Part shown: positions 8,646 to 29,993 of the stretch, piece after piece
How positions within the stretch are numbered: the first letter of the stretch is position 1
Layout: each line of letters starts with the position of its first letter
Assembly (NCBI GenBank): GCA_030264375.1
Contig: JASCQW010000122.1
Span: 26,151,947-26,215,946, forward strand
DNA length: 64,000 nt
Source: Carcharhinus longimanus
Lineage: Eukaryota
Direction of reading: 5' to 3'
Translations under genes and position numbers: made by a program
The notes under the pieces: model-generated
What the model saw: the letters and a program-made list of their open reading frames with translations, nothing else
Database searches by the model: none
Told to the model about the DNA's origin: nothing

Positions 8646-8762
8646 TACTTCTGTGCCTTGTGACATCAAAGATACGGGTGGTTCTAATCTGCTGGTGGAT
8701 TTTCCTTCCCTGCTGAAGGATGATGTACTTCTCCAGAATGATGGTGAAGAATTTGCTCTAAG
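8646..8762 (+). CDS. Cassette exon A (117 nt, phase 2-2): (S)TSVPCDIKDTGGSNLLVDFPSLLKDDVLLQNDGEEFAL
   Basis: Acceptor tctctgttttaccAG, donor AG|GTACTG, open frame. The 5' end (ag|tacttctgtgccttgtga) is homologous to exons B and D. Confidence 0.75.
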
Positions 8763-8974
8763 GTACTGAACATTATAAATCGGGATTCAGTCCTATTATT
8801 TCTGAAAAAAATCTTATTTGTCTCTATTTAGTGGTTTCGCCTAACCCGTGTGTGGGTGGCTGCTTGTTGTGAAACACATTGGTGTCACGAGATTAATTAC
8901 TTCCAATCAGTTAAATGGTAGATTGGTTTCCATTCACTTCCATCCGAAGAACTGATATAAAAAAAAATGTTCAA

Positions 8975-9690
8975 CGTATGCTGGCTAGGCATCTCTAATT
9001 GTCCTTCAGAAAGATGGTGGTGAACTGCCTTCTTGAACCGCTGAGTTTGTGTGGTGTAGGTACATCCATAGTGCTGTTAGGGAGGAAGTTCCAGGATTTT
9101 GACCCAGCAACAGTGAAGGCACTATAGATCCAAGTCAGGATGATAAGTAGATTGGAGGGAAACTTGGTCCTATGTATCACCTGCCCTGATGGTGGCAGTC
9201 ATATGTTTGGAAGATGCCATTGAAGGAGCTTTGGTGAGTTCCTGCAGTGCATCTTGTTTATGATGGACACACTTTCTTCTGACACACAAGAGTGTCAGTG
9301 ATGCAGGGAGTGAATGTTTGTGCATGGAGTGCCAACCAAGTGGGCTGCTTTGTCTTGGATGGTTTCAAACTTCTTAAGTGTTATTGGAGCTGCACCCACC
9401 AGGCAAGTGGAGAATATTCCATCAGACTCCTGACTTGTGCCTCACAGTTGGTGGACAGGCTTTGGGGAGTTAGGTGAGCTGTTTACTGCAGGATTCTGAG
9501 CTTCTGACCTGCTCTTGTAATCACAGTATTTCATGGCTAGTCCAGTCCAGCTTTTGGTCAATGTCCCAGGATGTTGATAGTGGGGGATTCAGCATTGGTA
9601 ATGCCATTGAATGTCATGTGGTGGTGGTTAGATTTGCTCTTGTTGGAAATGGTCATTGCCTGACACTTGTGTGGCACGAATATTACTTTT
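8975..9690 (-). mobile_element. 3' end of an APE-type LINE (RT C-terminus and tail), partner of the family-2 SINE
   Basis: Minus-strand translation includes AGSKSWNFLPNSTMDVPTPH. The terminal ctggctag..catc.ctaattg.cctt segment matches the SINE tail at about 17735-17770 and 62160-62200. Confidence 0.75.
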
Positions 9691-10379
9691 CACTGCAAAT
9701 CAGCTTTGAATCTTCTAGCCAAATAGAGACATGACATGCCAATATCTTCAGCTTCCAGCATCAATTTGAAGGAACACTGCCGAGAATTAGACGTGGAGTC
9801 CAGACCAAATTAAAAAGACTATGTCATCAGGGCGAGTAGAAGATTGGGAGAGGTTTAAAAATCAACAAAGATTGACGAAGAAGATGATAAAGAAAGGAAG
9901 GATAGANNNNNNNNNNNNNNNNNNNNNNNNNNNNNNNNNNNNNNNNNNNNNNNNNNNNNNNNNNNNNNNNNNNNNNNNNNNNNNNNNNNNNNNNNNNNNN
10001 NNNNNNCCACAATTAAATTATCTGCAAAAGGGCTGCAATAGGTGTGCACTTAGCATTTTACAATTTTGTTATTGTGAATGTGAAATGGTTCATGATCCAG
10101 ATGTCAGAATAATGACAGCAAAATTATTGGTGTTTGCAGCCATTACTCCTCTGAATCTAATATCACCTTCTGGAGTCTCACAAGTAGAGGTTGCTTTCAG
10201 TGATTCTACACTTCTCCAGATGGTGCACATTGGAAGCCCCCAGAAACTGTAATCAATTAGAAGCCATTGACTGATGAGATCTTCCACATTTATACTCCTA
10301 GCCTCACTGTCAAAACGTATGAAAAGTTACACCTTGTTAAATGAAGTCTATCTATCTAGATTTTTAAATGGCACACTAA

Positions 10380-13300
10380 GGGCAGAATTCTCCCATGTCC
10401 AACAATCAGTTTCACGCTGGCTTAAAATGACAGGTGGATCTTTCACAAGTTTCCACTATGGCAGGTTGTGATTCCCGCTAGAGGCCAGCGTGAATCCGAA
10501 TTGCATCCCACTGATGGGGCCACATTAGGACCAATGTGAAGTGCAAAATCGGGACTTACTTTAAGAAGACCTTGGACAGCTCATAAAGCCCCAAGAAGAA
10601 GGAGAAGGCCTTCAATAGCCGGACTCTAGTACGTCATGTGCAGCACCTGGGCGGGGGGGGTGGGGTGCTTCAACCACTCAGATCTTCTCCACAAAGCAGC
10701 ATCCAGAAAATGGTTGTTCTCAGCACAACAACTTCACCATAGGATTGGACCTTCTCCTAGGGATGTCGTCATAGGATCCGACCTTCTTCCAGGGTGGTCG
10801 CCATGGGATCAGATCATCCAGTTGTAGATGGAAAGCTGCAGGAGGTACTGTTGGGCCGTGAGAGGTGTGTTGTGGGGAGATGCTAAAAGAAGGATAGAAG
10901 AGGAATGAAGAGCTGGTGCAGAGATTCAAGCCTAAAGGGGGTTGTGGGTGGCTCGGGATGTTTGGGACAGGGCATCAGAGGAGTCTTGCAGGGCGCTAGG
11001 TGGAACAGAGCAGGAGGGTGGGAAGGGCTGTGATGTGTTCCAGGGAAGTAGAGGGTGTTATGTGTACATCTGCGGCACATGGGGAGGGGTGTCAAGGTAT
11101 GAACGGGTGTCGTCAAGACGTGAAGGGCTCACAGGGAGGGTTGGCATTGCCAATTGTGCACTTGGGTTGAATGAGGGTAGTATGATATGAGAGAATCCTG
11201 AGGGTTACAAGGGACAGAGGGAACATGTAGAATGGGAGGGTGACAGTATGGGAATGTCAAATTGAAAGATGCTGTGTTGGTGGTGGGGACAGTGAGGTAT
11301 TCATGGAATCAGTAGGTGGGCAGGAGGAGGGCGGACAAGCCAGTGTTAACAGACTGGGATTCTCGGGGCTAAAGGATGCGTGGATGTTGCTCCAAATGTT
11401 GTTGATGGAGAAGGGGGAGAATTGAAGAGTGGATGCTGAAAGTTTTGCTGGGGTGTCAACAGCTATGGGGCTAAAGTGGGAGACTAGGGTAGAAGAAATA
11501 GTGTCAGAAGTAAAGTAAAATGTGAGCATCACCATTACCTACCTGGTCAAAACTATGCAGAGCCTCATGGTGGGGATCTCGAGATACTGCTTGGGAGTTG
11601 GGTCAGTGAATGGATGGAGATGCAACATCGCAACTGGGTAGCTAAAAGGAAACCCCAACGTATAGTATTTATAATGCTAGGATCCTGGTACACTTGAGAC
11701 TTTAAAGGACAAAGGCTCAGCCATGTGGTGATGTCCGCCGATCACTGAAAATGGCAATGCAGATGGATAAAGTAGTCAAGAAAGCATTCAGCGTGGTTGC
11801 CTTCATCGGTTGATGTACTAAGTATAAGAATTGGCAGTCATGCTGCAGTTGTACAGAACTTTAGTTCGGCCTCATTTAGAACATTGTGTGCAATTCTGGT
11901 CACCACAATACCAGAAGGATTTGGATGCTTTGGAGAGAGTACGGAAGAGGTTTACCAGGATGTTGCCTAGTCTGGAGGGTATTAGTTATGAGGAGAGGTT
12001 TGTTCTCACTGGAACCATGAAGGTTGAGGAGTGACAGAGGATGGTGAATGTCAGAACACACTACCTGGGAAGGTGGTGGGAGCATGTACGATAGTGACAT
12101 TCAAGGTGCATTTAGGCAAATACATGAATAGGATGGGAATGGGAGGATACGGACCCCAAAAGTGCATACTGTTTTAGTTTAGGCAGGCACCTTGATTGGC
12201 ACAGGCTTGAAGGGCCGAAGGGCCTGTTCCTGTGCATTTCTTTTCTTTGTTCTTTGTGGGACAGTGCCTGCACATGGCTTGCAAGGCCCTGGCATATACC
12301 CTTGACTCCTTTCAGATGCTTCATTCCAGAGGATCTGGTGTCCACAGACAGATGAAGGGCAGGGGATGCAATCAGTAAGCAGTAAGGACCACACTGAAAG
12401 AAGACAGTAGACGTGAAAGTGATATTTACAAAGGTTTTCTAATCATGACATTCAATTGTTCACCCATGCAACCAGTTGTGATATAACATTTTTTGATTCT
12501 CCTTTTCCTGCTACTTCCTCTAAGCGTTCCCCCAGCGTCTACAGCAGTGTTGGAAGCAGGCTGCTGACTGGTTGACCCTGTTGCCTTGGATGACTCTGGT
12601 GGCTGCCCCCTGGGGACCTGGCTTACTTTGGATGTCCTGCTTTGGGACAATTGTTGCCTTTGTGGTGACAGAGGATGAGATTGAAGGGGTCACAGGCAAA
12701 GGAGATTTGGAATGACCTGACAACCACTGCGATTCCTGAATGGCTAACCCATGGATGTGGAACTGCTGCTCCTTCTCCCGCTAGGTGCCTGAGGGTCCCT
12801 GTCTGCCTCGTTGAAAAGAAAGGGCGCCTAGAGGGATTTTGAGGTGCCTGGTCCTCTCTCGAGCAGCAAGTGCTGCCCTGTGCATATCTGTGCAAGAATC
12901 TGCTGAACTAAGATCTCCATGGACTTGCCATCCTCCATGCCATCCTCCTCATGGAGACGTCAACATGCGCACAGGTCATCACCACTTCATCAGCCAGCTG
13001 GCAAATGGACTTGGCTGCATGCCATCTTGTTGAGGGTTTCCAACACCTCTGCCTGATGTTCCCCTGCCTCTTGCTGACTTCCCGGCATCAGTTGGATGGC
13101 TGATTCCAGAGGCCCATCATCGGGGATTTGGAATGACCTGACAACCCGCAGATGCCCCTTTCCTAGTATTGCTTCAAGTGCCAATGAACTTGGCTGACCC
13201 TGCGATCTCCTGATGTGGACATGTGTCCATGTGGTGACCATTAGCGTGTGAGACTCTTCCTATACTGGAGCTCATACCACAGTGTGTCTCTGGACTAGTG

Positions 13301-13700
13301 GAGAGTGCAGCTGTCTGTTGTAATGCCTCTACAGTTGCACATCTTTCTTTTTATGTTTTCTGCTCACTCCTGTCCAAGTTTGGGCTTGTGCTGAAGCCTG
13401 AAAAGGATTCTTCTGGCTTGGGCTTGGGCCTTGGCCTTTTTCGAGTGGCACCTTTAAATGAGAGAGAAGGCAGTGAATCACAGCATGAGCTGCCTTTGAC
13501 ATGGAAGTATCCATGTCCCTGAAGCTTCTGCTCCATGAAAGGATCCTTACTGGGAGGAGGCCCAAATCCATTCTCCCCATCTCCAATGGCCCAGTCCTGC
13601 TGCACACCTGCCAAGTAGGCTGCCCTCTCCTCAAGCTCTATCTGAACCTTCAGTTTTGGGTGATCCGCTCCCATCTTCTCATGTTCTCACTGGTTGTGGC
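10380..13700. mobile_element. Large degenerate DNA transposon (probably PIF/Harbinger) with a nested CR1
   Basis: Begins taaGGGCAGAATTCTCCC, a TIR motif shared with the MITEs in this window. Contains a purine-rich spacer at 10930-11530 and decayed minus-strand coding remnants at 12430-13670 (PRGQPPESSKATG...RGSSRKRRIKK). Boundaries are approximate. Confidence 0.45.
11740..12245 (+). mobile_element. CR1/HER1 LINE 3' fragment
   Basis: Translates to VMLQLYRTLVRPHLEHCVQFWSPQYQKDLDALERVRKRFTRMLP, the classic CR1 ORF2 C-terminus, followed by the tail gggccgaagggcctgttcctgtgc. Confidence 0.95.
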
Positions 13701-13854
13701 TTAAATTATCTTGCTCAAAGAAAACGAAAAAGATGCTTGAGAGAAACTGTATGTAGCACCATTTGTAGATAGTAATTTCACTTTGCATTTCTCATGCCTC
13801 TAGATGTTAGAGATAACTGAATTGTGTGGCATGGCATCAATGCATTGTTAAAGT

Positions 13855-14128
13855 TTAAAGTTTAGATCAGAGTTGAGGAGGAACTTCTTCACTCAAAGGG
13901 TGGTGAAGCTCTGGAATTCTCTGCCTGTTGAAGTGGTGGAGGCTACCTCGCTAAATATATTTAAGTCACGGGTAGATAAGTTTTTGATAGACAAGGGAAT
14001 TAAGGGTTATGGGGAGAAAGCGGGAAAGTGGAACTGATCCACTTCAGATCAGCCATGATCTTGTTGAATGGTGGGGCAGGCTCGAAGGGTTAGATGGCCT
14101 ACTCCTGCTCCTATTTCTTATGTTCTTA
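13855..14128 (+). mobile_element. CR1/HER1 LINE 3' end
   Basis: gaggaggaacttcttcactcaaagggtggtg...tggaattctctgcc...gatggcctactcctgctcctatttcttatgttctt. Confidence 0.9.
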
Positions 14129-15129
14129 TCAGATTTTGGCCCCTTTGGATTAATTGATGGACAGCCTACATTGACTCATCTTGGTTTTGTTTTGGCTTAT
14201 CACTTTATATCAATGACATTATGCACACACGGGGTCATTTTGCTTTTTTTAGCAATTGAGCCATGATAATCGGTCCCTGGAGAGCTCCAGAAACAAAAGT
14301 TTTTCTTGTTTATGTATATTTAATTTTTCTGTTTGTCATTTAGTGCGTATATGAAGAGCACTGACAGTGAATAATGGTGTTTGATTCCCGAAACATTTGA
14401 AAGATGTATCTGCACTTTTCCTTTAATTTAGTTCAGGGGGATTGGAAGGCTTCTTTCACTGACGTTAATTCCAAAGAAATTGAAACTTTTGGTCCTAATA
14501 AAGATGCCTGGGTGCTGGGAAAGGTCACATCAAGCTCGGTTATGATAATTGCCATGTCGCATGAAGGGCCCAAAATACAAGAGAGATGAGTCATGCCGGG
14601 GCTGTGTGCAGGGTTTATTCTGTTTGCTGTATTTTTAGGACAGAGGGACTGATAACACAAATAAGGCCTTCAGTCCGGATTCCTTTTACTGCAGATGCCA
14701 TCATACTAAGGGAATGCCTTGTGTTCCTAACTGTCATTAATCAGTGCTGTGTTCCAAAATTAACTTTACTGGAACAGCTGCCGTAGGTCGATTGGGACTT
14801 TACACTCTAACTTGAATAACTGCTTCCAGTCTGTCTGACATATTAGCTCTGCTCAAACTCCTTCATCTAGAGACAGGGTGCCATGTGTCCTTACAGATTA
14901 TCAACAGAATCACCTGCTTTACATTCCAATTGACTTTTGGCTACAGCTTACCCATTAATGCTGTGAGCAATCCTGCTCGATAGTGTCCTGCAGGTGCACA
15001 GAATAACTCGAGAGAAGTCAGGAGATGGATGTAATGCATTTTTCAACGAGCTTCCCAAGCTAAGACAGTGCGGGGAACCAGTAAACTCAAAAAAATGCAT
15101 TCTGATATAAAACATAAAGAAAGCCTTGA

Positions 15130-15810
15130 TTTACAGAGTAAGAATTAGATCATATTGTGGATGAAGGACTGTACAGTTCTCGGTCTCAATCAGCTCTTTG
15201 AACCTGCTCTGCCATTCAATAAGATCTTGGCTGACCTGGTTGTGATCTCGTTTCCACTTTGCAATCTGCTCCCCCACCCCGCAACCCTGTCCCCATAACT
15301 TTTGACTCCCTTGTGTATCAAAAATCTGCCTAACTCTGCAGTGAATAAATTTAATAACTCAGCCTCCCCATCTTCTTGGGGGAGAGACAGTTGGCCCTCT
15401 GAGGGGGGAAAAAAATCTTTTTATCTCCGTCTTAGAAGGTAGACCTCTTATTCGTAAACTGTGTCCCTTAGTTCTAGTCCCTATCGCGAGGAGAAGCATC
15501 CTCCCAGTATCCGCTCTATCAATTCCCTCAGGAACTTGTATGTTTCAAGCAGATAAACTTCCATTCTTCTAAACCTCCATGGGATTGGCCCAACCAGTTC
15601 TACCTTTCTTCATAAGATAAACTCCTCATCCCAGAACCTTCCCTGAACTGCTTCTAAGGCAATTATATATATTTCTTCAAATAAAGAGACCAAAGCTGTA
15701 TGGGATGTTTGAATTGTGGTCTCACCAGTGCCCTGTACAGCTGCAGTAAAACCTCCTTACTTTCATATACCATTCCCCTTGCAATGAACGAAACATTCCA
15801 TTTGCCTACC
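15130..15810 (-). mobile_element. CR1/HER1 LINE 3' fragment
   Basis: Minus-strand translation gives FIARGMVYESKEVLLQLYRALVRPQ...QLWSLYLKK. Confidence 0.9.
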
Positions 15811-15914
15811 AAATCACTGACTGTAAATAACTGATGCATGAGGATACTGAGAAGTTGGATGTCAAGAAGCATGTGGTGGAAAAGAAGTAGGCAAGCAAAA
15901 GCTCACATTCAAAC

Positions 15915-16083
15915 TAAAAGTTTATTAAAGTTTATTTATTAGTGTCACAAGTAGGCTTGCCCTAACATTGTAATGCATGTCTTTTGGGCTACGGGAGGAA
16001 ACTGGAGCACTCGGAGGAATTCCACGCAAACTCGGGGAGAACAGGCAGATTCTGTACAGACAATGATTCAAACCAGGATTTGA
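15915..16083 (-). mobile_element. HE1-type V-SINE, tail B, truncated by the adjacent copy
   Basis: aaagtttatttattagtgtcacaagtaggctt followed by the reverse V-domain. Confidence 0.8.
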
Positions 16084-16378
16084 ATCATAGAATAGAATCC
16101 CTAAGTACAGAAGGAGGCCGTTCGGCCCATTGAACCTGCCCTGACAACAATTCCACCCTATCCCCGTAACCCCACATATTTGCTCTGCTAATCCCCCTGA
16201 AACTAGGATCAATTTATCATGGCCAATCATCCTCACCCACGCACCTTTAGCCTGTGGGAGGAAACCAGAGCACCCGGAGGCAATGCACACGGACATGTGG
16301 GGAGACAGTGACCCAAGCTAGGAATTGAACCTGGGTTCCTGGTGCTGTGAGGCAACAATGCTAGCCATCGTGCTGCCG
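16084..16378 (-). mobile_element. HE1 V-SINE, CR1-type tail A
   Basis: Reverse head (gctgtgaggcaacaatgctagcca) and tail (catagaatagaatccc...gaaggaggccgttcggccc). Confidence 0.85.
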
Positions 16379-17454
16379 CTAATCTGCAAAAAGATACTTG
16401 CTAAAGTCATGTTGTCTAAATTATTTCCTAACATATACTAGGAGGGAGCAGGAAGCTTTGATGTGAGGGGGGTAAGACCGAATCAGTTAAGTGGCTATCT
16501 GCAATGTACAAAGTACTGAGAGAATGAGTTTCAAAAACATTTGTTTCTGAATAATGTATGAATAATTCATGTGATGTGCATGTTGGAAGTAAGCAGCGTC
16601 TCAATTTTCTATTCTGAATAAGTCTGTAAGTATTGTGAATTCTGTTGGCAAAGACCAGTATGCCGATTAGGCACTCCAATGGTATATTTTCATTGAGATT
16701 GCTCTGAAGGTCCATTGGCACTACCCCCAGGCAACATGAATAAATGGATCAGCCCTCAAACATCAGCATCGACATCAGCTCAAACACACTCCAGAAAGCG
16801 AACAACGGGTCACTGTCACAAGTGTTGCTTCCCATGTCAAATTGAAAATGGAAATGAGGCTGCCCTTAGAACAGAGAAGACCAAGGACGGAAGTCTGTAA
16901 CTTAATTTTGAATTGAATATTCCAGACATAAAAATTTCAGTGCAACAAAACATGGAAGGGCTGGACTTCCAGCTTCTAGAATTATCCACTGAGGTATTGC
17001 AGCGAATACTGCAATGTATGTTCGATGGTTAACATCATGATGTTGGTGTTGTCATATGTTGGCTTAACGTTCTTTGGTGTGCCAGCGGGATTCTGGTGTC
17101 CTCCATTGAGATGACAAACAGCTTTGGTATCCCTGAGTTAGAGGGGGCTGCTAGTGGCACTGTCCCGTTTGGATTTTGTTCTATCCTTGCAGAGTTGGAC
17201 ATGTCTATTGTCCCCCATTGAACATCTCCACTGGCAATATGTACAAGTTGCAAAGACAATCAGATGAGAATGCATGGCGGAAAGAGAGTGCACAGGCTGG
17301 ATTAGCTAGATGTAAAAATAAATAAAATAAAATTCAGGAGATCCCTTCATTTTTTATGAAATAAACAGAGTCGAGTATGTTTGTGATTTATAATTGATTT
17401 ATATCAAGCATAGTTAATGACACAACATAGAATAGCTTCATTTGTGGCTTGCAA

Positions 17455-17552
17455 TTCTGAAGAAGAGTCATCTTAGTGTCAGAATGTTAAGTGTTTCTCT
17501 CTCCACAGATGTAGCCAGATCTGCTGAGTTTTCCTAACACTGCTTTTATTTA
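17455..17552 (+). mobile_element. Short Penelope-pLTR-like element of a second family (CTGAAGA hammerhead-like remnant)
   Basis: CTGAAGAagagtca...tttctctctccacagatgtagccagatctgctgagtttt. A reverse copy lies at about 35960-36060. Confidence 0.45.
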
Positions 17553-17694
17553 ATTTGTGGTTATGAAGCAATAAAATCTTCAATGGCCTTCTGGTTTGTT
17601 CTAAAATAACTTTACTAGTGAGGACCTACAAGTCAGTCACATCTTCTGTAATGATAATTATTATAATGACTACTGCTGATATGCCACATCTCTT

Positions 17695-18085
17695 CACTTT
17701 TCTTTATTCTTTCATGCGATGTGGGTGTCACTGGCTGGCCAGCATTTGTTGCCCATCCCGAATTGCCCTTGAACTGGGTGGCTTATTAGACCATTTCAGA
17801 GAGCGTTTAAGAAACAACCACATTGTTGCGGCTCTGGAGTCACATGTAGGCCAGACCATGTAAGGTTGGCAGATTTCCCTCCCTAAAGGGAACTTTAGTG
17901 AACCAGATGGGTTTTTCCAACAATCGACAATGGTTTCATAGTTGTCAGTAGATTCTTAATTCCAGATATTTTTTATTGAATTCAAATTCCACCATCTGCT
18001 GTGGTGGGATTCGAACCCTGGTCCCCAGAGCTGAGTTTCTGGATTAATAGTCTAGTGATAATACTACAAGGCTGTTGCCTCTGCC
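17695..18085 (-). mobile_element. Family-2 tRNA-headed SINE (LINE-derived head and tail)
   Basis: Reverse complement of the 24533-24880 and 60596-60960 elements. B-box appears as ggattcgaacc. Confidence 0.85.
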
Positions 18086-18659
18086 AAACTGCTGTTGTGT
18101 GTGCTTGAAAAAATTTACACTGCATAGTTTGGGATTTTTTTTGGTATGTTTTTTAAATGGCATTTCCTGTATGAAACCTGTGCAGATTTCTAACCTAGCA
18201 TCACTGATGGTTCATTGGTAAACCACCAATGTAGTCAGTAACATACAAACAGATGGTTCCAGGTTGATTCCAATACTGGATCCTAATAGATCGAAATTGG
18301 GAGAACAATTGTTTAACCACAGGGCCTCTGAATAACTAAAGAAAAATTCTTGGCATAGTTTTTGCTTGTATTTCTTCCTGGAAATGCTGATGTCCCATTT
18401 TGACTTTCATTCCATCAGAATGCAGATGGAGGTTATGAAATCCAGTCCAGGAAAGAGAAGGGAAAGTGGAATTCTGCCCCTGTATGAGGGCGGGTGTCAG
18501 ATGAGAACTAAATCTAGCAGAATGGAGTTGGCCTTCGGAGCTGAATCAGCTGCTGAAATTCACTGTCTTCATTCCTAGATGAAGAAGGGATGTTTGGTTG
18601 AGACATCAGTTGCTGCCAGTGACTGAGGAATCAAATGTGTCAAAGATTCACCTCTCGGA

Positions 18660-18890
18660 GTAGAGTCATAGAGAAATAGGCCATTTGGCCGAGCTCATCT
18701 ATGCTAACGAGGTTCCCTCAACTGAACTCGTCCCATTTGCCTGCATTTGGCCCATATCCCTCTAAACCTTTTCCATCCATGTATCTGTCCAAATATGTTT
18801 TAATTGTTGCAATTAACCTGCTCTGGCAGCTCATTCCATACAGGCTGTGAAAAAGTTGTCCCTCTCACCTTAAACCTATGCCCGCTAGTT
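18660..18890 (-). mobile_element. CR1/HER1 LINE 3' end
   Basis: catagagaaataggccatttggccga...cccatatccctctaaacc...ctctggcagctcattccata. Confidence 0.8.
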
Positions 18891-19304
18891 TAAGAGTTAA
18901 AGGGAGTTGGATAAGGAAACTTGTTAATGCAAATTGACATGTTAATTAATTCTCAATAACAATTTTAAACAAAACAGATTATAACATGGGCCCACCTGCA
19001 ATTTAATATTTAAATAACAAGTTGACTCACCTGCACAGGTATGCTAAATCTGCTTAGGGCTGCAGGTAGCTTTCCGCATCCGTAAGGGTTGTAAAGGCAT
19101 CATCTTACCATTGGATCACTCTTGTTTGCAAATTTTTGTCAAGTCATTTGTCAGTCATTTTAATGGCACTTTTTAAGATTTTAACTGCTTTTGATTATGG
19201 TGTTGAATAATGTATGGTGCCATTGTAAATTATTACCGGCAGGGTTTTAGGAAGTTAAAGCATGTTTTGAGATGTGTTATTGATGATTCTATTTAATTTT
19301 TCAG

Positions 19305-19436
19305 TGTTCCTGTGCCTTGTGATTGTGGAAAGGAGGTTGACCCTATTCTTCCATCTGCAACCTTATCTTTGCCCCTGCAGTCAAATGGAATAGATGAGCC
19401 GTTGTTTGATACTGCACATCTCCTAAAAGAGCTATA
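19305..19436 (+). CDS. Cassette exon B (132 nt, phase 2-2): (S)VPVPCDCGKEVDPILPSATLSLPLQSNGIDEPLFDTAHLLKEL
   Basis: Acceptor atttaatttttcAG, donor TA|GTATGT. Same length as exon D and alignable to it (LQS..D.P..D.A...KEL). Confidence 0.75.
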
Positions 19437-20392
19437 GTATGTGGTGAAAACTTCTCATCAACTGCTTTATTATTCTGAGTGAGAATTAGTGTATTTTAAA
19501 CAGATAAAAAGTAAGAGCTGCTCGTAGATAGGGAATCATTTGCCCATATGTGACACATGATTCTGTGACACAGGGTAATCTTTTCATTTTCAATAAAAAG
19601 ACCTGGCCGGAAAATGATCACATTTGGATATGTATTCACCATTCACTGCACAGGGAACAGCAAGACTTGATCTGTAATGATTCGAGATACTGTTCTTTTT
19701 AGCCTTCAACATTGAAGCTTTCATTGTGATGATATCAGATGGGAAGCAGATGTTATCAGGTGCCTGAAGACGAGGGATTTACAGAGAACATTTGTTCTGA
19801 TCTCTTCTTTCTGCGAGTGCTAACAGTCTGATCAGGTGGAGCGTCACTCTTTGCCTATCTGATACCAGGTCCCCTCAGGCAATGTAGTCAGAGTCATGCT
19901 GCAGCACCTTAGGGGGAAGCTAAAGATTCACCTCAACTGCAGCTTAACGTACAGCCTACTCAAAGCTGTGTAACACTGCTATTCTCTAAGCTCTCCATCC
20001 CCACAGTTTAATAAGTGGTCTTGGAAATTGAACTCTTGATGATGAAACTCGTTTCATTGACGACACTTAGCAGATGAAAGATGCATGGGTTCCATCTATC
20101 TAGCTGGAGAAAAATGAAAGCTCAACAGCTTCTTCTACTCAGCTTAGTGCACCAGTGGGACAACTTTATAAATCTTCTCGTCTGGCCGCGCGCACTAGAC
20201 GATTGACACGCTGCGCAAGACTTTCATCTATTATAGGTTTTATAACGTAAAACAATTCACATCATTGGAAGGACATTGTTCTGCTTTTGTTTATTGATGA
20301 CACTATGAACTAGCTCAAATCGATGAGCAAAGTATTGGATCTGTGTACGTGCCTGTGCCATACTTGACTCATGTTTGATCATTTTTTTCCAG

Positions 20393-20503
20393 CAATACTG
20401 TGTACGGTGACACTGCAGAGCCAATTCCTTCTCCATTTTCTCCTCCTCCTCTTCCTCCGTGCAGTGGGACAGACGCTGTTGATGTGGAACATGTTTCAAT
20501 AAG
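20393..20503 (+). CDS. Cassette exon C (111 nt, phase 2-2): NTVYGDTAEPIPSPFSPPPLPPCSGTDAVDVEHVSI
   Basis: Acceptor atttttttccAG, donor AG|GTATTG. The core agagccaatt...ccattt...cctcttc is shared with exon E. Confidence 0.8.
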
Positions 20504-20592
20504 GTATTGCAAATTTATACAAAGATTTATTCTGCAGCATTCAGCCTTTTATGAAGCTGATACTTCACTTACTTCTCTGTTTCTTGCAGCTA

Positions 20593-20800
20593 TGATGTGG
20601 AGATGCTGGTGTTGGACTAGGGTGGGCACAGTAAGAAGTCTCACGACACCAGGTTAAAGTCCAAGAGGTTTATTTGGTATCACAAGCTTTTGGAGTGCTG
20701 CCCCTTCATCAGCTGAGTCACTTGATGAAGGAGCAGCGCTCTGAAAGCTTGTGATTCCAAATAACCTGTTGGACTTTAACCTGGTGTTGTGAGACTTTTT
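20593..20800. mobile_element. Palindromic Penelope-pLTR element with two opposed hammerhead motifs
   Basis: Arms 20636-20712 and 20722-20797 are inverted copies of 775-875. Flanked by a TSD-like tctgtt(t)cttgca. Confidence 0.85.
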
Positions 20801-21066
20801 TCTGTTCTTGCATTTTTACCATATTTCAGTATATTTTATTCAGTCATAAATGTATTTTTCTTTTGACGAGCAGTCGCACTGTCTTGTGATGCCTCTGATC
20901 TCACCCTCCTATTTTAAACAGTGCACATTCTGCTGAGGTTGATTCTCAAGTGGATTTGATGAAAAAAAATTGCAATGACTTCTTGGAATTCTATAGAATC
21001 CTTAACTTTGTTCTTGATTTCTCAGCGTGGCAATATATTTTTTAGCTCTGTTAATGTCATTCACTA

Positions 21067-21362: not shown

Positions 21363-21647
21363 AAGTGTCATTCTGATTTAGTTGAATTTTGTTTTGTTGG
21401 TATGTATTCAGAGGTATCACAAAACTTGTATAGGAAGTTATTTGTTTCTATGTCCAATGATGGCAAGATTATACTTTTCTTATTAAATCAATATTTCCAC
21501 TTATTCTGTTCAGTTAAGTAGGGACTGCAACATCCGTATTGCAGCAGTGGTGCAGAACAACTGGGGCCATTGTTTCTTAGCCAATAATCTGACATTGCTC
21601 AATGTTGTGAGGACAGTATATTAACACATCTGGCATATGATAGACAT

Positions 21648-21790
21648 TGGGGCAGGTGAATTTTCCAATCCTGCTGGCTGTGGGAATCGTTGCGGGTGGG
21701 ACGCAAAAATTGACGGACCATTTGAAGGTCCATTGACCTTGGGTGGGAATTTCTGGCCTCAGGGCAGGTGTGACTGGAAAATTCTGGCTT
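21648..21790. mobile_element. MITE (Harbinger-like TIRs)
   Basis: Ends gaattttcca and tggaaaattc are inverted. Internal similarity to 32017-32133 and 33745-33848. Confidence 0.55.
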
Positions 21791-21989
21791 GGCAATGTGT
21801 CAGAAATCAGAATGTCATGTGTCAGCAGCCAGTTAAGGACTTCTATCATCTGAAAAGATGCTTAATTTTGATCCAGCTGTGGGCCAATTTGATCCTTTGA
21901 AATATCAGCGGAGGGCGGTGCAATTGGCACAGTGGTTTGTTTGTTTCCTCCCACAGCCCAAAGATATACAGGTTAACTTGATTGACCAT

Positions 21990-22590
21990 TTAGCCCTTCA
22001 ATTCTGCACCAACAACACCCAGTCCCTAACCCCACCTATTTTCCTTGCTAATCTCTCTGATGCTCATGGTCAATTTAGTATGGCCAATCAACCTAACCTG
22101 CGCATCTTTGGACTGCGGAGGAAATTGGAGCTCCAAGAGGAAACCCATGCAAGCAAGGGAAGAATGTGCAAACTCCACACAGACAGTTGTCCGAGTCTCT
22201 GGCACTGTGAGGCAGCAATGATAACCATGGGACGGCATAGTGGCACAGTGGTTAGCACTGCTGCCTCACAGAGCCAGGGACTCAGGTTAAGTTCTGGCTT
22301 TGTGTCACTGTCTGTGTGGAGTTTGCATGTTCTCCCCGTATCTGTGGATTTCCTCTGGGTGCTCTGGCTTCCTCCCATAGTCGAAAGAAGTGCGGGTTAG
22401 GTTGATTGGTCATGCTAAATTACCCCTTAGTGTCCCAAGATGTGTAGGTTAAGGGGATTAACAGGGTAAATACCTGGGGTATGGGGATAAGGTCTGGGTG
22501 GGATTGTTGTTGGTGCAGGCTCAATTGGCTGAATGGTTTCCTTCTGCACTGTAGGGATTCTATGATAACCACTGTGCCACCTTGCTGCCC
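21990..22590 (-). mobile_element. HE1 V-SINE interrupted by an opposite-orientation HE1
   Basis: Reverse body at 21990-22227. The head resumes at 22562-22590 (taaccactgtgccaccttgctgccc). Confidence 0.85.
22229..22561 (+). mobile_element. Full-length HE1 V-SINE, tail A, TSD atgataacca
   Basis: Head, V-domain and CR1-like tail are present. A 10-bp direct repeat sits at 22218-22227 and 22562-22571. Confidence 0.9.
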
Positions 22591-24025
22591 TAACTTGAGA
22601 TGAATAGGTTTAAGGATTTACAAATGGATTTGAATTGGTTAAATTGTAGATTAAGGAGTAGAATCACCAACGTAATTTTCTTTGGATAACACTGAATGCA
22701 ATGCATTGGGTCAGTAAGTGCAAGATTAGGAAAGTCAACAAGTGTGGATGGATGGTGTCGATGGGGATCGTCAGATTTTTGGGCACTGCAATCACTTTTG
22801 AGGTGAGACAAGCTTGTATAGATGGGTTAGTCTGCACTGAACCAGAGAGGCAACGTGGCTTTGCAGAAGCAGGAAAGAGACTGATGGCAAAAAACTGAAA
22901 CTATTAGGGTGTGGTAAACCAAAAAGACCAGCCAAACACATAGCGGGAAAGGGGGGGAGATAGTTACCCAAATAAGAATACCGTACATGAAGATAAGAAA
23001 TAAGTGAGTCAGGAGCACAAATTCAGATTAAGGAATTTAATGTCACAGCCATCACCAAGATCTGGTTACAAGTTGGGCAGGGTTAGAAGCTATACATTTC
23101 AGCTGTGGGATCTTCAGAAAAGATTATACAATGGAGCAGCAATATTGATCTAAGAAAACACAATTACAGCAGTAAGGGATGATACAAGCAGTGGATGCAC
23201 AATGGGTAGAATTAAGGATGAGCAAAGACTTTAACACATTACCTACGGAACTCTTAATAGGAACAATGTAGTGGGGTGCTGAAAAATCTGGAGATCTGGA
23301 AAAAATGTAGGGTCTTAATTTATGAATTATGAAGATTTGGTTCCCATTATGAATATTAATTGGGTGTTTCATTTTATTTAAGTGGTGGGCTTTAATTGGG
23401 GACCTGCATGTGGTCAGATATAGAAGACTAGGCTGAAGCTATGCTTGCTGGATTAGTTCAGCAGATTATTTAATGTGTGTCTTTATTGATAAAAGCTTGT
23501 ACATGTATGTTACCGATGAAGGATGGGGAAAATTGGAGATTATGCCAGCGAGATTTGTGATTTCCGGTTTTCACCAGATTTTGACCTCATACATCAAGAG
23601 TGCAAGCTCAAAATCCTGCCCATGGTCTTGTTGTGGTTGTATCCTGCAAGAAATAAGATACTTTCTGAGATGGATTCCAGTCAGTTGATGAAAGTTTCTA
23701 GATTTCATCCAAGAATTCTATTACGAAGGTTACCTGTTAAATGTGTAGAAAGTCTGGTCAGAATTGGCTAGGTTTTGGAAAAGGCCATTCAGTTTCTCGC
23801 AGAATTCAGCAAATTGGATAAAAGATCAACCAAGTTCAGTTTGGGCACCTCTGTATAGATGCTAGTGTTTAATGGATTATGTTGAGGTATCTCATCCGGT
23901 CAGTCAATTAATTCTAACTGATACTCAGTTCTTGAAGAAGGAGACTCAGTTGAATCAGGTACTTGATGCCTTAAAAATTCTTGGGAAATGATCATTCCCT
24001 TCAGCCTTTGTGGAAAATTTGACGA

Positions 24026-24186
24026 ATGGCCAATCCATCTAACCTGTACATCTTTAGACTGTAGGAGGAAACCACAGCATCTGGAGAAAACCCATGCAGA
24101 CATGGAGAGAACGTGCAAACTCCACACAAACAGTGTAGAGAATTGAACCTGGGTCCCTGGTGCTGTGAGGCAGCAGGTTCCACCAT
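24026..24186 (-). mobile_element. HE1 V-SINE, partial
   Basis: Reverse V-domain and head. Confidence 0.85.
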
Positions 24187-24532
24187 TTGAGGTCACTTGA
24201 GTGTGGTAATTCCATGGAAAGCAGCTAGAACAAGTGATTTTATAAGTACTGAAGTAATATCCAGTGGGATGCCTCTATGAAAAAGACACAAAACAAACCT
24301 GACATGGAGAACCGTAAGACAGTTTTTGGGAAATCATTAGCTCTGCAGCTTACCCAGTCAGGACATTCCCTTAACATGAAACCTGAAGTTTTACGTTAAT
24401 GTTCAACCAATATTGATGTTATTAGTTGCTAAGGATAAAATTCTGAAACCACCTGATGAGGTAGCAGATACAGAAGGTAAATTGTGGAAATTGAGCAAAA
24501 ATATCACGATTGAAATGATTCTTCCAGGATAA

Positions 24533-24880
24533 AGGGAGAGGCAGTGGCACAGTGGTGTTGTCACTGGACTAATAATCCAGAGACCCAAAGCAAGATCTGG
24601 AGGTCCAGGTTCAAATGTCACGAAAGGAGATAAGTGCAATTTGAGTTCAAAAAAAATCTGGAATTAAAATTCTGATGATAACCATGACACGTCATTAAAA
24701 ACCCATCTGGTTCACTAATGTCCTTTAAGGAAGGAAAATTTCTGCCCTTAGCTAGTCTGGCCTACATGTGACTCCAGACTCCCAGTAATGTAGTTGACTC
24801 TTAAATGTCTTCTGAAATGGAGGGCAGTTCAGGATGCCCCAGCCAATGACGTCCAAATCCGGTAAAATGAATAAAAAAAT
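24533..24880 (+). mobile_element. Family-2 tRNA-headed SINE
   Basis: gggagaggcagtggcacagtgg...ggttcaaat...aacccatctggttcactaatgtccttt...aatgaataaaaaaa. Confidence 0.85.
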
Positions 24881-26892
24881 AGAATTTCTTGGTGAATGAG
24901 CAGACCCAGAGGGAGCTAGATTTATTTTGGCATTTAATTTGGTCTGTTGGTATTATGAAGGAAAAATTTCACACGCTCTCATGATGCACGTTGGTGATTT
25001 CTTACGTGCTGGTAACTGTGGAATTTGAGAAAATTACTTTAAGGTTAGAGCAGAATTTTAGATTGCGAGTCAGGCTTGTGTGGATTTAAAATAAATTGTT
25101 TTAGATATTAAGCAAAGTGGGTCTGGAATAATTTTTATCAACAATCATAACTAAAGAGTGTTACTCCCAGTTAATTTGACTCGGTTATCACAGAATGATT
25201 GTTATATTTAAAGAAGAATCAAAGCTCTTGTCAAGCCTGTTTCGTTAGTTGAACTGGTTGTGCAGTCACACTGGGCCAGATGCTTGTTTTGTTTTGTTAG
25301 AGTTAAATACTTTGATGAAATATCCCTAAGAAGAAGATATTTTAAGGACAAATAAAATGTTACAAACATAAAATCTAGAAAAATCTGTCCTCGAGTTTCT
25401 TTCCTCAGCTTTGTCCCTTAAATAGTACTCCTTGAAATTCTTTATTTCCCTATAATTTGCATCAATTACACTTGTGAAACATTTGTATATTATTTTAATG
25501 AGTATTGCAGAATTTTTTGATTTATGATGCTGATCTGTATACAGATATTAATGGACAGTAGTTGAGGGATAAATTCATATTAGTGGTTAATTTGGTCTTA
25601 CCACTTGTGTGTTAAATGAGATTGCATTCTTGTCAAACGTAGTCCCCTTAATCACTTTTCCTCACTGAGGTGCAGGCAGGCGCCACATGGATTGTATGGA
25701 GCCCTGTGACTCTGCAGCCAGTTGTAGAATGCTTACTACAAATTATGATTGCTCCAGCTCCTATCGTATATATGTTGGGTGTATCGATGCTAACTCGATT
25801 TGCTCACCGTACATTTTGATGATTGATAGGAAGGACATTATTTTCAATATCTTTGTTTGCTCAACCAATTAAATGTAATGAGATTCCTGTAAATATAATG
25901 GAACTTGACCATTTCATATCTGAAACCAAACTTTGGTGCTTCCGTAAATCCTGTTTCGTTTCAAGGGGATCAGATATACCAAGTAATTGCACTTTAACAA
26001 AGTGCAAACCACTCACCCAACATGCTTCCTAAAGTGCGAGCTGTAACCTGATTCCTTTAGGTGAAATTTAAGTATAATAAAGTAATTGTGTTTGAATGAT
26101 GTGGGAAGTCCTCGCTGCGGACTTGTTTCTGCCTGAATACACTATGATCTATGACTCTATAACTGACAGTAATGGTAATGGAAAATGGCTTGTGTTCTTT
26201 GTCCAACCTTAAATGTGGGTGGTTTCTGGAATAGGGTCCGTACTTCCTTTTCCACTAAAGAATGATCAACAGTTTAAGCATTAGACTGACACCGAAGAAC
26301 CATGTAAATTTAGTCTGCCGGGGTCATTTGTTTGTTGTTGGTTAGTTACTGACAACAGCCACAGCCTCAGAGATAGGTTCTACTCCTGGGAAAAAGATAG
26401 ATTGTTTGGCTTGCTTGCTGGCTGAGATTGTAAGTGTAGCCCTTAAGGTGAGAATTCTTGGGGGAAGAGGTTTGAATCACGGCCCGTGAACTTAATGTGG
26501 AACTTGGAGGAGCACTCTTGTTTCTCTCGGCTTCACAAGAAGATGCCAGAATAAAAATGGTCATTTTGGTAGTTGGCTTCCATATATGTGAGAATACTGG
26601 TTGTAGAATGCACCATCAGTATGCATCAAAGCAACATCATCATCCTGTTTAAAGCTTTGAATTTTACAAAAATGATAACAACCAAATTTGATTTAAGTTA
26701 TGTGAATTTAAAAAAAGTGGGAGGTATTGGTGCAAAGTGATGATTTAAATTTCCAAATGTGCACTGATATTTTAGCTGTTAGTCATTGATGTTTTGTTAA
26801 GCGGAAACACCTCTTTAAATTATACCTACAACATAGTATTGGTTCAGAATGAGTTTTGGGAATGTCACTGATTATGTTCCTTTATTTTGCAG

Positions 26893-27024
26893 TGTTTCTG
26901 TGCCTTCCAGTTGCGAAGAGCCAGTTCTAGCTTTCCCTCTACCTCTTCCACTTCTAACTCTGCAATCTGACGATACAGATAAGCCAACCATTGATGTAGC
27001 AGAGCAACAGAAAGAGCTTGTGAG
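26893..27024 (+). CDS. Cassette exon D (132 nt, phase 2-2): (S)VSVPSSCEEPVLAFPLPLPLLTLQSDDTDKPTIDVAEQQKELV
   Basis: Acceptor tttattttgcAG, donor AG|GTATGT, open frame. Paralogous to exons B and E. Confidence 0.85.
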
Positions 27025-27619
27025 GTATGTTTGGAAGAAGAAGAAAGATTGGCATTTGCACAGAGCTTCGCAAGACAACTGAACATCTTAAAGTGTTTCA
27101 CAGCCAAGGATGTATTTGTGAAGAGTTTAGTCACTGTCCTAATGTGACGTGGTGCAGATGTGTTTTATTTTAACAAGACCATGGGGCTAAATCATAGCCT
27201 TTTTTGTCTGTGTGTTATGCATCAAGAGGTTGAAGGGAGGATTGCATGTCTATGTGATCGTTTCTTTGCACCCTGTCAGGAAATGCTTTGTGCCCAAAAT
27301 TTCACGCTGGAAATCTATCCCCATATTTGTACATATTGTTACTAAAACACAAAATGTTCAGTAGAATTTAAGAACTTTTCCTGGTACAATAAACTAGGAA
27401 CAGTGGCACTATGGGATCCATGATGGTCAGGTAACTGGTTGAAGAGGCAGATTATTTGGCATTTCAAGATTTAGCAGAAATTTTGATGGAGTGAATTTGA
27501 TAATCGACTAGGTATCTACAAGTGCAATAAGAATGCCAAACCAAAAGGTTTCCTCTTCACATGTCGACAACGTTCATTTAAGTTCACCTTAGTTGACACC
27601 ATCTGAATGCATTAAATTA

Positions 27620-28992
27620 TTGGCCATGGACTTCTGATCAGCAGCAGAACAAGACCACACGTGACGGGTCCTGTTTCAAACTGCATCTTGACCTCTGCTT
27701 GGAAGCCCTGGGTTCTGCCTGTCCTGGCTGCAGGCTGATACAGCAATGAGGTTGGTCAGGAAGCCCAGTGATGCAGTGCCACTGTAGTGAAGTGACGTCC
27801 CCTTGTTATCTTGAACTGAATGCAGGCCCTTTGAGATATGTTTTCAGTTCATTCAATCTCACTGTTTTGGACCCATCTTTATTAACAAGGCCCCACACGC
27901 AAACCTGCACTGCCAACACTACTCGACCTCACTCCACACATTTGTCAAAACCCACAACACTGCTCATCCATCCCATGCACCCCGATGGCTATTTTTAAAT
28001 TGACCTGTCTGCTTTCAGGTTTCCCCCAGCCAAGCCCACATCTCCAATACATTCCAGTCTCCTGCTGCTCACAATATCCAGCATTGCTCATAACCGCCCG
28101 CCCTCCTCTCCCCCTGCACCTTGACTCTGCCTTGCTTCCTCCCTGGCGCTTCTCACCTCCCCTCCTTTCCCCACCCCCAATGACCACTGCCAGACTTCTC
28201 AACACTGTTCCCGTCACCCTGCAACCATGAAAATATTCACTCCCCACCCCACCCTGCCCTTGTATTCCCAGCCATGCTCGACCTTCTCCTGACGCCAAGC
28301 CCCATCCCCGATTTGCTTTCAAATGGATCCTCTCCCTGTTTAAGCTTTCCCCTACAAACCAACACTTCTGACTCTACTCCGAATCTCCCCCAGTGCTCAA
28401 CCCCCTCATCACCATTCCACACTTTCCAGCAGCGCTTAGTCTCCTCAATGAGAATGCTTACCCCACCTCCCCTCATCCCCCCAACACTGCTCACTGTCCC
28501 CACAGCACTGAAAATACTCACCCCCTCCTGCACCCCCTGACAATGCTGAGCCTCCTCCCTCACACTGCTAATTCCCTATCCAATCCCGGTCTCCCGGCTC
28601 TGCTCTGACATTGGTCCGACCAAGGAGCCAAGAATTCCGGATGTTGAGCCGGGGTGGGGAGTAGGGTGAACTGTTCTGAGGTGGACATAGCAGGAGGGGG
28701 TTGGGGGTGGTGCATGGTAAGCAGTGTCAGGGGTGCCCTGGGTCCACCTGATTTACTTGGAGCTGCACTGATCAGCAGTGATCAGTCTGCTAGGACCAGC
28801 TCCAAAATTATCTGTGTAGAAATCAGTGTAAGTTTTGGCCAAACAGTTCAAGTTAATGCACTTAGCTGTGCCATGGAGTCATTTCTGGTGTTCTAAGTGT
28901 TCTGGGTTCAGAAGCTGGCTCCCAGGAACTCCCAATACCACTTCCATCCTGATCTCGACGCGAACTGCTATTTAATTGGAAGATCCAGGCCA
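27620..28992. mobile_element. Non-autonomous DNA transposon relic with a C-rich spacer
   Basis: Imperfect inverted ends (tggccatggacttc and gaagatccaggcca). The interior 27890-28610 has strong C/G strand asymmetry. Confidence 0.4.
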
Positions 28993-29305
28993 GTATTTCT
29001 GTTTTGCTATCCTTGTGTCTTGTGAGGGCACAGTGAAAACAACATCAGTTTTCCTCGAAAATCAGAAACCAGCTTGGTTTTGTTCGCTTGCTATCGAGTG
29101 GCCGCTCACTGATTCCATGACCTATGATGGGGTCTTTGCTCAAGGGTTACACAGATTGTATCCGCTGAGTTCCAGCCCTACATTCTTTACAAATAGTCAC
29201 TTCTCAACTTAATTTCTTGCAGGTAATTTTTATGTTTTGGGTCTTTTAACAAATCTAACATTCAATAGAAAGTTGCCTAATGACTATATTTCAGAAAGGC
29301 ACCTA

Positions 29306-29342
29306 TACTAATTTTAAGGGTTATATTTTAAGATCCAGTTCA
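29306..29342 (+). repeat. 37-bp perfect direct repeat, copy 1
   Basis: tactaattttaagggttatattttaagatccagttca, identical to 30108-30144. Confidence 0.95.
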
Positions 29343-29610
29343 TTTTTACCAGTTTCCGGCATTCAAACAATCCATTTAGATTAGAATAAAATGAAAAGTG
29401 AAGCAAACTGCTTTGAGATTGACATGTAGGTGGGGCTATCCCAGTGTGCATTGGGTAAGGGAATGAATCAATACATTTCTTCATTTTTGCATAATGCAAA
29501 TAGTTTGACATGTGAAAACATGTAAAAAGCCATGTCAAAGTGGAAGTTATTTGATCTTACCGAGGTGATTGTGCCTATTGTATCTAAATTGTGATGTTAC
29601 TGTGTAGTTC

Positions 29611-29774
29611 TGATGTGGAGATGCCAGTGTTGGACTGGGGTGAACGCAGTAAGAAGTCTCACAACACCGGGTTAAAGTCCAACAGGTTTGTTTGATAGTA
29701 AAAGCCACTAGATTTTGAAACGCTGCTCCTTCGTCAGGTAAGTGTTGTTCAGGTATTGTGAGACTTCTTACTGT
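29611..29774 (-). mobile_element. Short Penelope-pLTR element with a hammerhead remnant and a short inverted arm
   Basis: Reverse copy of 775-915 (minus strand CTGACGA aggagcagcgtttc AAAA). TSD-like ttactgt(g/a)tagttc on both sides. Confidence 0.85.
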
Positions 29775-29867
29775 ATAGTTCAGCAGCTATTGGTAATAAA
29801 ACCTGCTCTGTCATTTTATTTTACCTTATGGAACACTTCAAATCTTGTCACGTTTTGCGTTTTCCAG

Positions 29868-29993
29868 TGTTTCGTTATCAAGTGACTCGGAAGAGCCAAT
29901 TGTTCCTCCTCTTCCATTTGTACCACCCCCTCTTTCACCTGAAGGAAGTAACGAACCAGAGGTTGATACGACAGACCTGCAGAAACTTCGAAG
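29868..29993 (+). CDS. Cassette exon E (126 nt, phase 2-2): (S)VSLSSDSEEPIVPPLPFVPPPLSPEGSNEPEVDTTDLQKLR
   Basis: Acceptor ttttgcgttttccAG, donor AG|GTATGT, open frame. Paralogous to exons B, C and D. Confidence 0.85.

Follow-up and report, generated by a model that had tools for sequence, protein, structure and literature searches.

Five short open exons on the forward strand of Carcharhinus longimanus contig JASCQW010000122.1, which we call A to E, raise the question of whether they are related parts of one gene, and how that gene uses them. The window, which is the whole 64,000-nucleotide stretch analysed (positions 1 to 64000, + strand), lies wholly inside TACC2.

Gene identity and the units of the array

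The original prediction left the gene unnamed. Judged by sequence homology, the gene holding A–E is shark TACC2, a microtubule-associated protein. Synteny with FGFR2 would be expected of a TACC2 gene. One downstream exon on the same strand matches the TACC_C domain (PF05010, E 4.2e-16), 77% identity to Hemiscyllium TACC2 was found over a downstream exon, and further exons were mapped. Among the 120 matches listed, each one named to a paralogue is TACC2, never TACC1 or TACC3; the remainder are unnamed, hypothetical or carry only a TACC-domain name. Exon order also follows human TACC2 (giant exon, short symmetric exons, SSDSE exon, 1.3-kb exon), and internal first exons agree with Table 1 of the human gene (PMC8087818, available in part). 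The array falls within the N-terminal half of the shark protein, with the giant exon on its 5' side and the ‘SSDSEG’ exon on its 3' side. Its units and landmarks are as follows (A–E in window positions, all others in contig positions).

Contig 26103110–26110605, + strand: giant exon frame, outside the window
Contig 26110720–26110830, + strand: exon-5 equivalent, outside the window
Contig 26122892–26123032, + strand: unit U1, array member outside the window
Contig 26133220–26133360, + strand: unit U2, array member outside the window
Contig 26138466–26138573, + strand: unit V, array member outside the window
8646–8762, + strand: unit A, 117 nt, phase 2-2; the most divergent member, with orthologues in 12 of 14 species
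19305–19436, + strand: unit B, 132 nt, phase 2-2
20393–20503, + strand: unit C, 111 nt, phase 2-2
26893–27024, + strand: unit D, 132 nt, phase 2-2; one DNA match genome-wide
29868–29993, + strand: unit E, 126 nt, phase 2-2; the last unit 5' of the SSDSEG exon
Contig from 26219840, + strand: SSDSEG exon, outside the window
Contig 26293361–26293521, + strand: TACC_C exon, outside the window

All five predicted exons are where they were placed: each has a CAG acceptor, a GT donor, a length divisible by three and no stop in the phase 2-2 frame, a frame that homologous proteins bear out. The three sequence motifs described for them are likewise present, namely the acceptor motif at A, B, D and E (with three further sites in 464 kb), AGAGCCA(A/G)TT at C, D and E (three further sites) and a donor flank found at B and E alone. 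The LQS pattern said to join B and D exists in a slightly different form, with three residues rather than two between LQS and D. A series of five is real but incomplete, as U1, U2 and V lie 13–29 kb upstream and bring the array in this genome to eight units.

Introns between units span 1–22 kb, and the assembly has gaps between U1 and U2 and immediately 5' of the window. A candidate exon at −33190 and other scan candidates were dropped, as they match no homologue compared. No decayed extra copies were found in 464 kb, with one minus-strand partial match at E 0.001. Pfam gave no match on A–E or F, and the ESM Atlas no usable match for the array.

Paralogy, distribution and ancestry

We compared each exon with its flanks against 300 random AG-anchored unique intronic windows. 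Eight of the ten A–E pairs exceed all 300 windows (the exceptions are A with D, 7/300, and A with E, 5/300), as do 22 of the 28 pairs among all eight units; a neighbouring non-family exon, used as control, gave Z ≤ 2.4. Protein comparison shows clear paralogy among B, D and E (Z 6–12, with B versus D at 9.6–12), a moderate signal for C and a weak one for A; a DNA profile of B–E detects A at E 0.015. In cross-profiles, the other subfamily supplies the next-best matches in 464 kb. Common intron flanks join B/D, B/E, U1/U2 and V/A, mostly scoring above the best of 105 control comparisons. The predicted DNA-level exon duplication is upheld by these exon-plus-flank tests, intron flanks and cross-profiles: on phase, splice flanks and similarity beyond composition, A–E are true paralogues, tandem duplicated exons, with A the weakest case.

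One-to-one orthologues of A–E, their order and frame preserved, were identified in sharks and batoids (14 species). RefSeq models of those 14 species already contain the exons, contrary to the suggestion that they are unannotated. Many elasmobranch models are titled ‘uncharacterized protein’, and the repeat is not annotated in any of them. Mustelus XP_078079488.1, Hemiscyllium XP_060698026.1 and Amblyraja XP_032889678.1 carry A–E, V and U orthologues in order. The Mustelus model has three U copies, whereas two were found in C. longimanus, with the assembly gap between them. A count of copy number across sharks and rays, as the original prediction proposed, gave 6–14 units per gene in public models, with the U class at 2–8 copies by lineage, near-identical neighbours among them. 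The four carpet sharks examined have no B in their models, and two of them no A, which appears to be loss and fits dispensability. The U class seems to be duplicating independently in catsharks, lamniforms, the horn shark and batoids, with A–E as the old, fixed part.

A profile search of 1.84 billion proteins returned seven matches, five of them elasmobranch TACC2; the other two (P0213, unnamed, and P0214, a snail hypothetical protein) were rejected as tandem-repeat open reading frames whose scores are sums of many weak stretches. This search also missed amniote TACC2, so a lack of matches from chimaera or bony fish does not amount to absence there. The sole candidate outgroup fish protein (P0007) begins downstream of the array. 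The expansion is seen in elasmobranchs only.

Human TACC2 has three short symmetric variable exons (114, 126 and 135 nt) in the same slot, and its exons 4–7 are symmetric and combinatorially variable, leaving the TACC domain intact; the available part of PMC8087818 does not call the three paralogues, whereas this shark has an exon-5 equivalent and eight paralogous units. Amniote models skip exon 7 in 7 of 50 classified. B and D are the units closest to that exon (global Z 3.9–4.1, with 0/300 shuffles as high); a local HMM of B, D and E did not find it, its best domain on amniote TACC2 (3.1 bits) lying elsewhere in the protein. Exon 7 is the best B/D window in five of seven amniote proteins and among the top three in the other two. 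These alignments point to amniote exon 7 as a likely homologue of B/D and to a unit that is likely ancestral, pre-dating the shark/amniote split. The proposal of lineage specificity thus holds for the expansion but not for the slot, which human TACC2 shares (PMC8087818, available in part), nor, likely, for the unit itself.

Splicing, protein features and competing explanations

We examined 73 elasmobranch models, and 61 include every unit, 11 lack one and one lacks two. Skipping affects A in three models from three distant species, C in one Heterodontus model, D in one Amblyraja model and E in one Stegostoma model; B and V are retained in every model having them. P0147, a candidate D-less model, was rejected, as it has a longer Leu-Pro run. 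Ten skate-like Logan contigs (4.9–5.6 kb) encode frames of 1437–1489 amino acids with 10–11 units in series, and since the array is joined within these frames the contigs are spliced; a single unit is missing from one of the ten. Cassette behaviour, with in-frame skipping of single units, is seen in relatives (12/73 models, 1/10 Logan contigs), the counts resting on computed RefSeq/GenBank models of relatives and one Logan contig. Contigs of four runs compared with positions 8500–21000 are repeat-dominated and all DNA-like, including a run guessed to be RNA, and 0 of the 15 joints listed (7855 further) fall at the ends of A, B or C, a result that is neutral as to expression in C. longimanus.

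The array region has a net charge of −0.09 to −0.15 per residue in 13 of 13 species measured. AlphaFold leaves the sawshark A–E region unfolded (pLDDT 30–40, no secondary structure), with the caveat that low pLDDT from an alignment of 22 rows does not prove disorder; FoldIndex, near zero or positive, and TOP-IDP were uninformative. A–E are predicted to form a disordered, acidic, Pro/Ser-rich spacer, in line with the disordered linker originally proposed. The purifying selection proposed for A–E is clear for the frame and only weak for the sequence. Identity of A–E to batoids is 43–48%, against 64–71% for the SDP exon, and dN/dS between paralogues is 0.28–0.55 (32–46 codons, protein-aligned, NG86), a method that biases values low.

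We consider it probable that A–E are five of eight paralogous, frame-neutral TACC2 exons produced by repeated tandem duplication, forming an acidic disordered spacer whose full inclusion is the default, single units being skipped occasionally. One ancestral exon would have been duplicated repeatedly to give the eight units; A–E would already have been fixed when sharks and batoids diverged, and U would have gone on duplicating. The reading frame, the length and the net negative charge would be the main targets of selection, with residues only weakly constrained. Distance and charge between the N-terminal region and the SSDSEG/SDP region with the C-terminal coiled coil would depend on the spacer, and occasional skipping of a unit would shorten it. 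The array would be transcribed from the upstream promoter only, and transcripts starting at either of two alternative first exons further downstream would leave it out. A more ambitious version, in which the ancestral exon became, in sharks and rays, a still-expanding, splice-regulated acidic spacer of 6–14 units that works in a microtubule-associated scaffold as a PEVK-like length dial, with human exons 6–7 its unrecognised relics, is possible but doubtful.

Near-neutral drift is a rather unlikely alternative to the default-included spacer: the units would be effectively constitutive, copy number would drift in a tolerant disordered region and skipped forms would be splicing noise. The 61 complete models are consistent with this, as are the loss of B in four carpet sharks, the variable U copies and an identity only slightly above that of the fast giant exon (38–39% in batoids; in Mustelus 88% for A–E and 86% for the giant exon). 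A–E identity in lamniforms and Heterodontus, however, stands 13–19 points above the giant exon. Order and frame of A–E are kept across sharks and batoids, A is skipped in three distant species, and usage in the human slot is non-random, with 12/16 combinations (PMC8087818, available in part); all of these argue against drift. We regard as improbable a multivalent array of short linear motifs, either proline-directed phosphosites or Pro-rich SH3/WW/EVH1 ligands, with splicing setting valency. PxxP occurs in 52 of 69 A–E units, P-x-[ST]-P in 12 of 15 E (as P-x-S-P) and 9 of 15 C units, and a loose EVH1-like pattern in 18 of 69. Yet none of the 69 contains a class I/II SH3, PPxY or [FL]PPPP motif (definitions from general knowledge), basic residues make up 0–5%, the length of the Pro run is variable, with erosion in batoids, and the eight-unit alignment has no invariant column. 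The originally suggested tuning of such ligands is not supported, on the same motif count.

Mutually exclusive use of the units, one per transcript, was put forward alongside combinatorial splicing and is very improbable. Mutually exclusive clusters do usually consist of paralogous exons of similar length lying in tandem (PMC9013439, available in part), but each of the 73 models has more than one unit and none lacks more than two, the ten assembled contigs carry units in series and the introns reach 22 kb. As 61 of 73 models hold all units, splicing is cassette-like, and for relatives mutual exclusion is refuted; frame-neutral skipping of single units is the part of the splicing proposal that stands. 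Least credible of all is that A–E are non-coding or dispersed repeat remnants mimicking exons. The introns are indeed repeat-rich (22% of 464 kb self-similar), but A–E lie outside the self-similar mask, significant genome matches occur at the TACC2 locus alone (with counts as lower bounds), as expected if the unit is not a genome-wide repeat, and the translations match named TACC2 proteins, which refutes this reading.

Comparison with other exon arrays and implications

CD44 has a block of frame-neutral optional exons that lengthens a flexible region, extracellular and skipped by default. The TACC2 array resembles it as a frame-neutral optional block but is intracellular, paralogous and, in models, included by default. 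The titin/connectin PEVK segment is similarly a Pro/Glu-rich disordered segment of duplicated exons spliced to length, cartilaginous fish included (PMC12241362, available in part). That segment is about 70% P, E, V and K according to the same partial source, compared with 29–36% in the TACC2 array region; the TACC2 array is not known to have a mechanical role or a tissue pattern, and we found no sequence relation between the two. Origin by tandem exon duplication is common to the TACC2 units and mutually exclusive exons (PMC9741552, PMC9013439; both available in part), but the TACC2 units are co-included rather than substituted. ‘TACC’ is absent from the main text of these two papers, as far as that text was available. 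Our literature search, which did not extend to older TACC gene-structure papers, found no description of an elasmobranch paralogous exon array at the TACC2 slot, of its division into an old, fixed part and a duplicating one, or of the likely descent of human exon 7 from its unit.

A cassette region already known in TACC2 is expanded in elasmobranchs; the expansion is real, seems not to have been described before, and gives a spacer that is likely length-variable and acidic. This is neither a new gene nor a new mechanism, as the exons are present in public models and the human slot is variably spliced. The array illustrates cleanly how tandem exons that are included together can multiply within a disordered region, and it allows comparative study of a part of TACC2 for which the literature compared shows no function. 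If the length-dial reading is true, differences between species in copy number, together with differences between tissues in inclusion, would form a natural series for testing the N-terminal variable region.

Gene identity and membership of the array

Taking in 200 kb on either side of the window, G000:C122:26151947-26215946 (464 kb in all with the flanks), we identified a Pfam TACC_C match on a downstream exon (E 4.2e-16) and a 438-codon downstream exon with 77% identity to epaulette-shark TACC2, whose paralogue-named hits are all TACC2 among the matches listed. The giant, 111-nt and SSDSEG exons follow the order of human TACC2 exons 4, 5 and 8 (Table 1 of PMC8087818, which gives the human giant exon 1771 codons versus ~2500 here). 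The giant exon is the fastest-changing of the regions measured and is absent from Hemiscyllium models and from ten Logan contigs (assembled public sequence). Among the homologues compared, the Mustelus protein is closest (86-100% identity, depending on region), which makes a carcharhiniform genome likely.

The original prediction of five exons (A-E) was borne out in coordinates, splice sites and open phase 2-2 frames. Its three shared motifs are present, and the B/E donor flank is unique to those units in the 464 kb. The count of five proved incomplete, with three more units (U1, U2 and V) upstream, and the exons, supposed possibly unannotated, are already present in public gene models.

Features of the TACC2 region (window coordinates unless stated; A-E each have a CAG acceptor, a GT donor, a length that is a multiple of 3 and an open phase 2-2 frame)
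L006 (upstream stretch):1164-8659 = G000:C122:26103110-26110605, +, giant exon, stop-free frame of 2506 codons, upstream of the array
114 nt after the giant exon, +, 111-nt exon, phase 2-2, equivalent of human exon 5
Upstream of window, +, U1 and U2, 141 nt each, phase 2-2, revealed by homologous proteins
Upstream of window, +, V, 108 nt, phase 2-2, revealed by homologous proteins
8646-8762, +, unit A
19305-19436, +, unit B
20393-20503, +, unit C
26893-27024, +, unit D
29868-29993, +, unit E
40035-40102, +, alternative first exon of a short TACC2 isoform, starts ATG, GTGAGT donor in phase 2
67667-67786 (L022, downstream stretch, ~3667-3786; 3.7 kb beyond window end), second alternative first exon, ~100 nt before the SSDSEG exon
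3.9 kb beyond window end (start), +, SSDSEG exon

An in-frame alternative acceptor lies 15 nt into E (29883), and E is cut at the same point in both Scyliorhinus species. The length of the Leu-Pro run of D (26930-26960) varies, in frame, across species; two models from a single Chiloscyllium species also differ in it. Window introns (for example 8917-9750, 11836-12252, 13504-14337, 15172-16422, 17257-18090 and 20593-21000) contain high-copy interspersed repeats with summed contig depths of 1e4-1e6 in DNA-like runs, which by eye read as LINE and SINE fragments.

Origin and distribution of the units

The units appear to have arisen by DNA-level duplication, as originally proposed, and this origin is well supported by profile cross-matches, a random-window test and intron flanks common to units. 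Against the 464 kb, a B-E DNA profile found U2 (E 1e-4), U1 (1e-3) and A (0.015) as next-best matches, and a U1/U2/V/A profile recovered E (2e-4), B (3e-3) and C (0.12). At the DNA level, 22 of 28 unit pairs outscore all 300 random AG-anchored unique windows; the exon-5 equivalent, as control, reaches Z of at most 2.4. Flank scores exceed the control maxima on the acceptor side (B/D 40.5, U1/U2 32.5; control 31) and the donor side (U1/U2 45.5, B/E 39, V/A 28; control 25). In protein comparisons the kinship of B, D and E is clear (Z 6-12); it is less evident for C, V and U and weak for A. Because no long duplicated blocks are left, duplication of A-E is likely to be old. Self-similar sequence makes up 22% of the region, with A-E all outside it, and whole-genome searches at the DNA level for D and at the protein level for E and U1, whose counts are lower bounds, gave no significant match outside the TACC2 locus.

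Amniote TACC2 exon 7 is quite probably homologous to B and D, judging from sequence. Aligned end to end it scores Z 3.9 and 4.1 (drawn from 24 shark-amniote comparisons), and none of 300 column shuffles was as good. Exon 7 ranked top in five of seven whole amniote proteins scanned with an exon-7-sized window; in the other two, one and two windows equal or exceed it. A local HMM did not recover amniote exon 7.

Named models from 14 shark and batoid species contain the array: every species has C, D and E, 12 have A and 10 have B, which the models of all four carpet sharks lack. U copies number two in Carcharodon, Chiloscyllium and Stegostoma; three in Mustelus, Cetorhinus, Heterodontus, Hemiscyllium and Rhincodon; five in two skates; six in two catsharks; and eight in Hemitrygon (sawshark models start at A and fall outside this count). 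A tree built from 53 U units over only 50 columns pairs adjacent copies within each of Cetorhinus, Heterodontus and S. canicula (starred support) and, with weaker support, S. torazame. Four skate copies cluster with copies from stingray, and support is starred for three of them. This pattern suggests that copies have duplicated repeatedly and independently or have been homogenised, though single near-identical pairs could be assembly artefacts. The assembly has gaps within the array at window coordinates -25829..-25730 and -1380..0, which could hold another U copy, Mustelus having three.

When 1.84 billion proteins were searched with a profile of the array, seven matched, five of them elasmobranch TACC2; the other two were rejected as repeat ORFs unrelated to the array. 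The literature searched, mostly main texts of open-access papers, does not describe the elasmobranch array; the exons are annotated, and variable splicing of the human slot is published (PMC8087818).

Splicing and alternative first exons

All of a species' units are present in 61 of 73 computed elasmobranch models; one is missing in 11 and two in one (U seven times, A three times, C, D and E once each), and B or V is never skipped among the 73. The ten Logan contigs (4.9-5.6 kb), which are independent of these models, carry frames of 1437-1489 aa with the array units joined, at 97-99% identity to Leucoraja across the array; given the genomic span of the gene, they are thus spliced. One of the ten lacks a U unit. 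The relatives' models and contigs fit co-inclusion by default with single-unit skips. Of the two modes originally envisaged, combinatorial splicing survives as these skips, whereas co-inclusion speaks against mutual exclusion.

In the human gene, exons 4-7 are all symmetric and vary in inclusion, with 12 of 16 combinations dominating (PMC8087818). TACC2 splicing changes, not necessarily in this slot, are reported with CELF1 (PMC4791255) and in myotonic dystrophy (PMC4161394), and those reported in heart development concern exons 15 and 16 (bioRxiv 2025.03.21.642423).

The first exon at 40035-40102 shares 83% identity with a turtle N-terminus over 23 residues, and the second 65% with a turtle TACC2 N-terminus. 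Since both conserved first exons lie downstream of E, short isoforms would lack the whole array. Some 700 nt past the former lies a 138-nt stop-free stretch (40793-40930, +) with an internal ATG. Its AAG acceptor is weak and its GTGAGT donor, in phase 2, is strong; no Pfam family and none of the homologous proteins compared matched it. It may be a further first exon or a cassette that is rarely used.

Composition, constraint and role

Units A-E are acidic, their net charge lying between -0.09 and -0.15 per residue in each of the 13 species measured. In the AlphaFold model of sawshark TACC2 they have pLDDT 30-40 and no secondary structure, the coiled coil mostly 82-97. By the usual motif definitions, PxxP occurs in 52 of 69 A-E units and P-x-S-P in E is the most persistent short motif (12 of 15). 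The proposed tuning of SH3/WW/EVH1-like ligand content is not supported, as no unit of the 69 has a class I/II SH3, PPxY or [FL]PPPP motif. The suggested titin PEVK analogy may extend to length change by duplication and skipping but not to composition: P/E/V/K content is 29-36%, far from the ~70% given for titin in PMC12241362.

Identity of A-E to C. longimanus falls from 88% (Mustelus) to 43-48% (batoids). Over the same range the giant exon is lower, at 86% down to 38%, and the SDP exon higher, at 93% down to 64%. Paralogue dN/dS is 0.28-0.55 in short, protein-guided alignments. The main rival reading, near-neutral drift with skipping as noise, we consider unlikely. We favour, as reasonably likely, an acidic spacer under weak constraint that retains its frame, order and charge. 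Duplication would alter the length of this spacer between species, and unit skipping may alter it within a species.
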